Shown piece by piece: positions 30,541 through 54,330 of a stretch of 64,000 bases of DNA. The first letter of the stretch is position 1, and every line of letters begins with the position of its first letter. The DNA lies in NCBI RefSeq assembly GCF_022846255.1, contig NZ_AP025682.1; one strand, given 5' to 3'. Source of the stretch: Escherichia coli. Its GTDB lineage: Bacteria > Pseudomonadota > Gammaproteobacteria > Enterobacterales > Enterobacteriaceae. Position numbers and translations under genes: made by a program. Under the pieces are notes generated by a model. It saw nothing but the letters and a program-made list of their open reading frames with translations. It did no database searches and was not told the origin of the DNA.

Positions 30541-32091
30541 TTATACCGTAAACCCTAACATCATCCCCGTATCTTCATGCTCCAGCAGATGGCAGTGCGC
30601 CATATAAGCATGTTCTTTCGGTGCATCGTGATTAAACTTCACCAGCACTTCGCTGACATTACCTTCTACCTTAACGGTATCTTTCCAGCCTGCGCGATGC
30701 GTCGCTGGCGGTTTGCCATTTTCTGACAAGATACGGAACTGCGTACCGTGGATATGGAACGGATGCAGCATCATGTCGCCCACGCCAGAGATAACCCAAC
30801 GTTCGTACTGCCCTTTCGCCGCCGCAAACATCGGCTTATTCATATCAAACGCCTGACCGTTGATTTTGTTGGCATGGTGGAAATCAAACTTCCCGCTGTG
30901 GTTCATATGATTCATATTGCCGTGCCCCATATGGCCCATCATCTGGCTGTGATCCATCCCGGCCATCGCCTGATCGCCATATTTCTCCATCAGCATCTGC
31001 ATCCCCATCATATCGAGCATTGGGTCCATAGAAAGTTGCAGCTTGCGTACCGTCAGCCCCTCCAGCGAAGGTAACGCAGGCAGGCTACTTAATGTGTCTG
31101 GCAAAGCACCAGAGGCACTAATGGCAATCGGCTGAATCCGCATTACCGGATGCGGCTTGTCAAACGGCGCAATCGCCATCCCCATCTGGCTGACCGGCAG
31201 CGTCACCAGGTCAAAGGGTTTGTTGTCGTTAACCTCCACCAGCACTTCAAAACGCTCGCCCATCAGCACTGGCAGCTCGTTCACCTTCACCGGTTCAGGT
31301 AGCAGACCGCCGTCGCTGGCAATCACATAAAGCGGGCGATTGTCGCTGGTGGCGAAATTGAGCGAGCGGGCATTACAGCCATTGAGCAAACGCAGGCGCA
31401 GCCAGCCACGCGGGGCAGCGTGTTGCGGGTAGATTGCACCGTTGGTCAGCAACGTATCGCCAAACCAACCCACAGCGGCGGTCATCACATCCAGTTGATA
31501 ATCAATCTGCCCGTCAGCGTTAAATTTTTTATCCTGAACAATCACCGGGACATCATCAATACCCCACTGTTTTGGCAGCATTAATTTCAGGATCTCGTCA
31601 TCTTCAATCACCACCAAACCAGCCAGCCCCATCGCCACCTGACGTCCGGTCTTGCCATGTTGATGTGGATGGAACCAGCAGGTAGCGGCAGGTTGATCAA
31701 CGTTCAACGTCACCGAGCGCTTGCCACCTGGCGGAATAATTCCCTGCGGGCCGCCGTCCACTTCACCCGGTACTTCCAGCCCGTGCCAGTGCAACGTCGT
31801 CTCTTCCGTCAGTTGGTTGTAGATATCAACCGTTACCGCTTTGCCACGCTGTAATTTCACCGCCGGCCCCAGCAGATTGCCGTTATAGCCCCAGGTAGTT
31901 GCGGTTTTCCCGCCAAAGGTGGACTGACCTGCGCCAATAGTTAACTGAATGCGATTACGGGCATCGGTCGTGAGCAAATCAGGGATTGGTAACGTTGGGC
32001 GTTCCGCCGCAAATACTGCGCGGCTCCACAGCGGCAAGGCTGAAGCCACACCCAGCGCGACGGAATATTTCAAGAAATCACGACGTTGCAT
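30541..32091 (-). CDS. cueO: Multicopper oxidase CueO (periplasmic cuprous oxidase)
   Basis: Within ORF 30541..32130; ATG 32091 gives Tat signal [28 protein letters not shown] (516 aa); Met/His-rich insert; copper ligands HCHLLEH. Confidence 0.92.
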
Positions 32092-32136
32092 AGTTATTTC
32101 CTTATTCTTAAGCAGGCGAAACAAAATCAAACGTTG

Positions 32137-32167
32137 AGCATAGTCCTTCCCCTTACGGGAAGGTCAA
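32137..32167 (-). promoter_or_regulatory. CueR (MerR-family) dependent promoter of cueO with 19-bp spacer and dyad operator
   Basis: Minus strand reads TTGACC-TTCCCGTAAGGGGAAGGACTA-TATGCT: -35 TTGACC (32162-32167), dyad CCTTCCC...GGGAAGG (32145-32163), -10 TATGCT (32137-32142), 19-bp spacer; ~45 bp upstream of cueO ATG. Confidence 0.7.
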
Positions 32168-32256
32168 GCCGCAGACACAATTTAATCGACAATAATGGTC
32201 GTCGCCTCGCTCGCAGTGTGCTAACGTTTATCTTCTTTAAGCCCCTGGTAGAAGCA

Positions 32257-32604
32257 ATGAAGACGTTTTTCAGAACAGTGTTATTCGGCAGCCTGATGGC
32301 CGTCTGCGCAAACAGTTACGCGCTCAGCGAGTCTGAAGCCGAAGATATGGCCGATTTAACGGCAGTTTTTGTTTTTCTGAAGAACGATTGTGGTTACCAG
32401 AACTTACCTAACGGGCAAATTCGTCGCGCGCTGGTCTTTTTCGCCCAGCAAAACCAGTGGGATCTCAGTAATTACGACACCTTCGACATGAAAGCCCTCG
32501 GTGAAGACAGCTACCGCGATCTCAGCGGCATTGGCATTCCCGTCGCTAAAAAGTGCAAAGCCCTGGCCCGCGATTCCTTAAGCCTGCTTGCCTACGTCAA
32601 ATAA
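32257..32604 (+). CDS. yacC: Small periplasmic protein YacC (PulS/OutS-like)
   Basis: Within ORF 32086..32604; ATG 32257 gives signal peptide MKTFFRTVLFGSLMAVCANSYA (115 aa). Confidence 0.78.
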   Translation: MKTFFRTVLFGSLMAVCANSYALSESEAEDMADLTAVFVFLKNDCGYQNLPNGQIRRALVFFAQQNQWDLSNYDTFDMKALGEDSYRDLSGIGIPVAKKCKALARDSLSLLAYVK

Positions 32605-32709
32605 TCCCTGATACCTTTTTGTAGAAATATTGACCGTGCATCCGCGGTCAATGTTAGCTATTATGTTGCGCCCTTTTTTTACGGGTGTTAACAAAGGAGG
32701 TATCAACCC

Positions 32710-53138: not shown

Positions 53139-54330
53139 GCAACTCTGGCGCTGGCGTGGCATAACCGGCGACGGCAATGCGCAAGATGGGATGCTATGGG
53201 CAGAGAGCCGTGCTTTGCTGCTTATGGCACTACAGCAACAGATGGTTACCCCACTAAGCCTGAAGCGAATCGCCATCAATTCTGCGCAGTGGCGAGGAGA
53301 TAAAAGCGCGGAAGTCATTCATCAACTGGCGACGCTACTCAAAGCCGGGTTAACGCTTTCTGAAGGGCTGGCACTGCTGGCGGAACAGCATCCCTGTAAG
53401 CAATGGCAAGCGTTGCTGCAATCGCTGGCACACGATCTCGAACAGGGCATTGCCTTTTCCAATGCCTTATTACCCTGGTCAGAGGTATTTCCGCCGCTCT
53501 ATCAGGCGATGATCCGCACGGGTGAACTGACCGGTAAGCTGGATGAATGCTGCTTTGAACTGGCGCGTCAACAAAAAGCCCAGCGTCAGTTGACCGACAA
53601 AGTGAAATCAGCGTTACGTTATCCCATTATCATTTTAGCGATGGCAATCATGGTGGTTGTGGCAATGCTGCATTTTGTTCTGCCGGAGTTTGCCGCTATC
53701 TATAAGACCTTTAACACTCCGCTACCGGCGCTAACGCAGGGGATCATGACGCTGGCAAGCTTTAGTGGCGAATGGGGTTGGTTGCTGGTGCTATTCGGCT
53801 TTCTGCTGGCGATAGCCAATAAGCTGCTGATGCGCCACCCAACCAGGCTTATCGCACGGCAGAAATTGCTGTTACGCATCCCGATTATGGGTTCACTGAT
53901 GCGGGGACAAAAACTCACGCAGATCTTTACGATTCTGACGCTGACACAAAGTGCAGGCATTTCTTTTTTACAGGGCGTTGAGAGCGTCAGAGAAACAATG
54001 CGCTGCCCGTACTGGGTGCAACTTCTGACACAAATCCAGCACGATATCAGTAACGGTCACTCCATCTGGCTGGCGCTAAAAAATGCCGGTGAGTTTAGCC
54101 CGCTCTGTTTGCAATTAGTGAGAACAGGAGAGGCATCCGGCTCGCTGGATCTCATGTTAGACAACCTCGCCCATCATCATCGGGATAACACAATGGCGCT
54201 GGCGGATAACCTCGCAGCCTTACTGGAACCGGCGTTGCTGATCATAACGGGAGGAATTATCGGTACGCTGGTGGTGGCAATGTATCTGCCAATTTTCCAT
54301 TTAGGCGATGCGATGAGTGGAATGGGATAA
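53128..54330 (+). CDS. hofC: Type IV pilus inner-membrane platform protein (PilC/GspF family)
   Basis: ORF 53128..54330 (400 aa); overlaps hofB 3' end by 11 nt; polytopic. Confidence 0.85.
   Translation: MASKQLWRWRGITGDGNAQDGMLWAESRALLLMALQQQMVTPLSLKRIAINSAQWRGDKSAEVIHQLATLLKAGLTLSEGLALLAEQHPCKQWQALLQSLAHDLEQGIAFSNALLPWSEVFPPLYQAMIRTGELTGKLDECCFELARQQKAQRQLTDKVKSALRYPIIILAMAIMVVVAMLHFVLPEFAAIYKTFNTPLPALTQGIMTLASFSGEWGWLLVLFGFLLAIANKLLMRHPTRLIARQKLLLRIPIMGSLMRGQKLTQIFTILTLTQSAGISFLQGVESVRETMRCPYWVQLLTQIQHDISNGHSIWLALKNAGEFSPLCLQLVRTGEASGSLDLMLDNLAHHHRDNTMALADNLAALLEPALLIITGGIIGTLVVAMYLPIFHLGDAMSGMG

Follow-up and report, generated by a model that had tools for sequence, protein, structure and literature searches.

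The stretch of DNA analysed here (64,000 nucleotides, hereafter called the window) carries, ahead of a gene for a multicopper oxidase, a pair of promoter hexamers set too far apart for ordinary recognition and overlaid by a palindrome, and the question raised by this locus is whether the arrangement is a genuine copper-responsive promoter and, if so, which regulator it obeys. CueR, a Cu(I) sensor of the MerR family, acts on copA and cueO through promoters with a 19-bp spacer (PMC8169799); it activates both genes, and apo-CueR represses from the same operator (PMC5329002). Judged from its sequence, the element upstream of cueO is almost certainly PcueO, the CueR-dependent, Cu(I)-responsive sigma-70 promoter of that gene, with CueR binding and copper dependence taken from the literature. 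No feature of the sequence speaks against this assignment. PcueO is already known, and the finding is real, correctly interpreted and ordinary. Its value is confirmatory, in that a textbook metal-responsive promoter was correctly recognised from raw sequence without tools.

Anatomy of the element and identity of the locus

The features of the locus, in window coordinates, are as follows.

32162..32167, minus strand: -35 hexamer TTGACC of PcueO, read directly
32143..32161, minus strand: 19-bp spacer TTCCCGTAAGGGGAAGGAC, read directly, 2 bp over the sigma-70 optimum
32137..32142, minus strand: -10 hexamer TATGCT, read directly
32145..32163, no strand assigned: putative CueR operator dyad CCTTCCC-N5-GGGAAGG, from the inverted-repeat search and the core match
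32131, minus strand: probable transcription start, transferred from K-12 position 137043 on the strength of K-12/window sequence identity, giving a 40-nt 5'UTR
32092..32130, minus strand: cueO 5'UTR, with the Shine-Dalgarno sequence AAGGA at 32103..32099
30541..32091, minus strand: cueO coding sequence, from the NCBIfam NF008205 equivalog and the RefSeq annotation in identical genomes
32257..32604, plus strand: yacC, the divergent neighbour, outside the promoter, from NCBIfam NF037975 'YacC family pilotin-like protein' (196.8 bits), with which the annotation agrees

The original prediction placed a -35 and a -10 hexamer 19 bp apart at 32137-32167 of the minus strand, and direct reading confirms both the coordinates and the spacer length. 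The middle string that it quoted, TTCCCGTAAGGGGAAGGACTA, contains the 'TA' of the -10 hexamer a second time and so comes to 21 nt; the true spacer has 19 nt. The full 31-nt element, TTGACCTTCCCGTAAGGGGAAGGACTATGCT, has a single exact match in the 64-kb window, at 32137..32167 on the minus strand, and its minus-strand context, read over window positions 31900-32400, is ...ggcTTGACCTTCCCGTAAGGGGAAGGACTATGCTcaacg...

The two arms of the dyad (32145-32151 and 32157-32163) are 7 nt each, stand 5 nt apart and are 100% complementary according to the inverted-repeat search. Together, CCTTCCC/GGGAAGG includes the published CueR core CCTTCC-N7-GGAAGG, which is matched at 12 of 12 positions at 32145-32163; the core is given in PMC8169799, where it is credited to Yamamoto & Ishihama (2005). 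The repeat is therefore real, as had been claimed, although it does not lie wholly between the hexamers: the upstream arm overlaps the -35 by 2 bp, its first two bases being the last two (CC) of TTGACC. The core begins at base 5 of TTGACC and stops 2 nt short of the -10.

The distance from the -10 to the cueO ATG at 32091 was measured at 45 nt, in keeping with the ~45 bp first given, and the gene downstream is indeed cueO. Its open reading frame encodes 516 aa with a Tat-type signal and scores 980 bits against the NF008205 'multicopper oxidase CueO' equivalog (cut-off 525, E 3e-295). The gene order gcd / cueO / yacC / speE / speD is that of K-12, read in reverse. That the window is E. coli is borne out by the 301 bp around the element, which are 100% identical to Nissle 1917, ATCC 11775 and others, annotated there as cueO/yacC, and which as a query match 5,424 of 5,426 complete E. 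coli genomes. The promoter and 5'UTR are base-for-base identical to the K-12 MG1655 sequence upstream of cueO (b0123). The window thus agrees with the K-12 PcueO (formerly the yacK promoter) over promoter and 5'UTR, in the gene and in the divergent yacC, with a consistent start; it comes from another E. coli lineage than K-12, but the differences are confined to flanking coding sequence.

The gene for the regulator was not found in the 64-kb window by tblastn (best E = 1.8). On the K-12 map cueR lies ~377 kb away, and its absence from the window is expected. Because cueR is not in the window, the regulator has to be supplied from other E. coli genomes; cueR is found in 5,424 of 5,426 complete ones, and by that comparison the source genome very probably carries it as well.

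The first alternative to be weighed is that the resemblance is due to chance and that cueO is in reality transcribed from another place in the 165-bp intergenic region. Hexamers at this spacing are in fact not rare, since the window contains 2 matches to TTGACC-N19-TANNNT where 0.40 are expected, which is not significant alone. The dyad core weighs on the opposite side, with 1 match of CCTTCC-N7-GGAAGG in the window against 0.00 expected in 100 dinucleotide-preserving shuffles. The significance resides in the exact core only; a core search allowing 2 mismatches returned 2 matches against 1.46 expected and is uninformative. A standard promoter scan of 31900-32700, in which spacers of 16-18 bp were allowed, called no promoter. 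As the spacer of the element is 19 bp, this result is not evidence against it, and a region without any promoter of 16-18-bp spacing speaks against a cueO promoter hidden elsewhere. The second TTGACC-N19-TANNNT match, at window position 53590-53620 on the plus strand, is without a dyad and is consistent with chance.

Likeness to known CueR promoters and the mapped transcription start

The closest known relative of the element is the copA promoter, and the comparison with its dyad that the original prediction proposed supports the assignment. In K-12, PcopA reads TTGACC-TTCCCCTTGCTGGAAGGTT-TAACCT. It has the same -35 hexamer (TTGACC), the same spacer length of 19 bp and the same core CCTTCC-N7-GGAAGG, which in both promoters starts from the fifth base of the -35, so that the register is identical. 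The two differ in the central 7 nt, which are CCTTGCT in PcopA and CGTAAGG in PcueO, and in the -10, TAACCT in the former and TATGCT in the latter. Their dyads also extend in different directions: that of PcueO grows inward (C11:G17, giving a 7-5-7 arrangement) and is without the outer A:T pair of PcopA, whereas that of PcopA grows outward, with the arms ACCTTCC/GGAAGGT and a 3-bp overlap with the -35.

A spacer of 19-20 bp is the hallmark of MerR-family promoters, and shortening it leads to constitutive activity (PMC3431237). PmerT, PzntA and PpbrA likewise combine an over-long spacer of 19-20 bp with a dyad for a dimeric activator/repressor that distorts the DNA (PMC3431237, PMC8169799), but they differ from PcueO in dyad sequence and cognate metal, and the spacer of PzntA has 20 bp. 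This combination of a long spacer and a dyad is shared by the metal-sensing MerR-family promoters (PMC3431237), so that CueR cannot be singled out from the architecture alone, and the element might serve as the operator of another MerR-family or dimeric protein, such as ZntR, SoxR or a GolS-like sensor. This is very improbable in view of the complete (12/12) fit to the CueR core, the agreement with PcopA in both sequence and register, the nature of the gene, which encodes a copper-detoxification enzyme, and the literature, which assigns cueO to CueR.

In that literature, PcueO goes back to Outten et al. (2000), who first reported it as the yacK promoter within the cue regulon, as cited in PMC8169799 and PMC5329002; CueR binding and CueR-dependent induction by Cu(I), Ag(I) or Au(I) are taken from papers that cite this work, Stoyanov (2001) and Yamamoto & Ishihama (2005). 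The cueO promoter has been called a CueR operator site (PMC4507017), PcueO-lacZ fusions serve to report on CueR (PMC9396075), and strains with a deletion of PcueO are in use (PMC9396075; PMC4507017). Both microarrays and RNA-seq show induction of cueO by copper (bioRxiv 10.64898/2026.03.12.711415). A search of the Salmonella cueP paper (PMC13201067) for a CueR box described at cueO gave no matching text.

The mechanism of CueR has been solved structurally, through crystal and cryo-EM complexes, on PcopA and not on PcueO (PMC8169799). CueR sits on the face of the DNA opposite RNA polymerase, its recognition sequence overlapping the -35, and it bends and under-twists the spacer so that sigma-70 recognises both hexamers (PMC8169799). 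We infer that this mechanism carries over to PcueO, an extension supported by the identical register of the dyad. With a spacer 2 bp too long, the -35 and -10 of the element would not be in the phase that RNA polymerase requires. CueR, whose gene would lie elsewhere in the genome, would bind as a dimer to CCTTCC-N7-GGAAGG, within the spacer and overlapping the -35. In the absence of copper, apo-CueR would keep the DNA in a repressed shape, and when copper is present Cu(I)-CueR would kink and under-twist the spacer, thereby realigning the hexamers and letting the sigma-70 holoenzyme start transcription ~6 nt past TATGCT, at window position ~32131 on the minus strand.

A start at that place is mapped in K-12. 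The Cappable-seq table (supplement of PMC4782308) lists a start at 137043 on the plus strand with a score of 6.37; as TATGCT occupies 137032-137037 in K-12, this start lies 6 nt past the -10 and 40 nt ahead of the ATG at 137083. The mapped base is a T, one nucleotide off a G, which is unusual, yet its distance from the -10 is normal. The original prediction allowed that transcription might turn out to start elsewhere; since the main K-12 start falls 6 nt after this very -10, it does not. The same position counts against chance resemblance, on whose side stands a weak second Cappable-seq start 41 nt upstream. This second start, at K-12 137002 on the plus strand (score 1.8), corresponds to window position ~32172 on the minus strand and lies just upstream of the -35; it may stem from a minor, constitutively active promoter whose transcripts run across the CueR operator.

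Conservation of the element across genera

A scan with the CueO protein, in which one genome per species was considered, returned 80 orthologue loci with 74-98% identity from ~25 genera of Enterobacteriaceae, including Escherichia, Citrobacter, Salmonella, Enterobacter, Klebsiella, Raoultella, Kosakonia, Kluyvera, Lelliottia and Phytobacter. The pattern TTGAC[CG]-N19-TA.[GC]CT is found just upstream of the ATG in 79 of these 80 loci, and in all 79 of them, which comprise 47 distinct variants of the element, the spacer is exactly 19 bp long. With this degree of conservation, added to the statistics and the mapped start, chance resemblance is excluded for practical purposes and can be regarded as exceedingly improbable. 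The MerR-family (CueR) promoter architecture that had been read from the sequence is accordingly upheld by the complete core, the 19-bp spacer, the PcopA register, the orthologue loci and the literature alike.

Across the 47 distinct variants, the invariant positions are TTGAC, T8, C10, G18, A20, G22, G23, T26, A27, C30 and T31, and position 6 of the element is C in 46 of them. The -10 hexamer is nearly always TATGCT or TAAGCT, with T1, A2, C5 and T6 of the hexamer invariant. In an alignment of 75 distinct upstream regions made with MAFFT, few parts of the intergenic region are as well conserved as the element and the Shine-Dalgarno block. Within the 5'UTR, the block AATAAGGAA is kept across genera, and the remainder varies both in sequence and in length, so that 33 to 45 nt separate the -10 from the ATG among the orthologues. 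A fixed 19-bp spacer and fixed dyad positions, set against a drifting UTR length, illustrate the constraint that DNA distortion imposes; this is a modest piece of documentation, which leaves the known picture unchanged.

The same variants bear on a further alternative, namely that the inverted repeat is an RNA or DNA hairpin (a terminator, an attenuator or another RNA element) rather than a protein site. A perfect, G+C-rich stem of 7 bp with a 5-nt loop would suit such a structure, but the mapped start is downstream of the repeat, neither strand has a T-run after it, and a terminator scan called nothing at the dyad. An Rfam scan of 31800-32700 at E <= 1 likewise gave no match, which leaves the palindrome unexplained by any known RNA element. 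In addition, all 47 variants have the same, complementary bases at the mirror pairs 5/23, 8/20 and 10/18, as do 46 of 47 at 6/22, whereas 7/21 and 9/19 are often non-complementary, the half-site nearer the -10 being GGAGGG in most genera. The arms are thus often mismatched across genera while specific bases stay invariant. A search for symmetric covariation of the half-sites across the 47 variants gave no strong signal, most of the informative positions being invariant and 9/19 only partly symmetric. Bases that are fixed where pairing is not kept fit a protein-binding site and not a hairpin. Taken with the position upstream of the start, the missing T-run and the negative scans, they exclude an RNA hairpin or terminator, the probability of which is negligible, and the dyad is best read as the CueR operator.

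The sole locus among the 80 without TTGACC-N19-TA..CT is that of Intestinirhabdus alba (L076). A MITE-like insert of ~265 bp (~2217-2482), bounded by 18-nt inverted repeats GGCTGTGTCCCTTAACCG, is located there directly upstream of the Shine-Dalgarno/ribosome-binding site, with the cueO ATG at 2501.

Variation within E. coli and the yacC side

Of 5,426 E. coli genomes, 5,424 contain the 56-bp segment centred on the element, and 5,211 of the 5,424 records show 100% identity over it. The 171-bp intergenic region as a whole (window 32090-32260) shows at least 99% identity in 5,366 of 5,431 E. coli records. The 301-bp query, which takes in the gene ends, reaches at least 99% identity in 2,491 of 5,431 records, the intergenic region being more uniform than its coding flanks.

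Ten places on plasmids also match the 301-bp query. On some E. coli plasmids, cueO is found together with a truncated gcd between two ISVsa5 (IS10-like) elements. An example is pTBE6_2_blaCTX-M-55 (L084, NZ_CP154402.1; 2685-8051), where the junction corresponds to window position ~32140 and the IS end ...GGGGATTCATCAG adjoins TGCTCAACG within the -10 hexamer. This copy of cueO is without the -35 and the entire CueR dyad, and the 5' end of the transposase gene faces it; for these reasons, its expression may be IS-driven and independent of CueR.

Since the operator sits between two divergent genes, in an intergenic region of 165 bp, it might conceivably also modulate yacC, which encodes a pilotin-like lipoprotein, or the weak start at 137002. 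This is unlikely; were it true, yacC would belong to the copper response. Extra, undescribed regulation would fit the near-invariance of the intergenic region in E. coli and the presence of a second conserved block near yacC. This second block, AAACGTTAGCACAC in minus-strand reading, is located at window positions ~32212-32228 and hardly varies from genus to genus. Its plus-strand reading, TGC-TAACGT, resembles an extended -10, ~30 nt before the yacC ATG at 32257, and by this likeness the block is a candidate for the yacC promoter. A partly conserved sequence, GACGACCATTATTGTCGAT, adjoins it.
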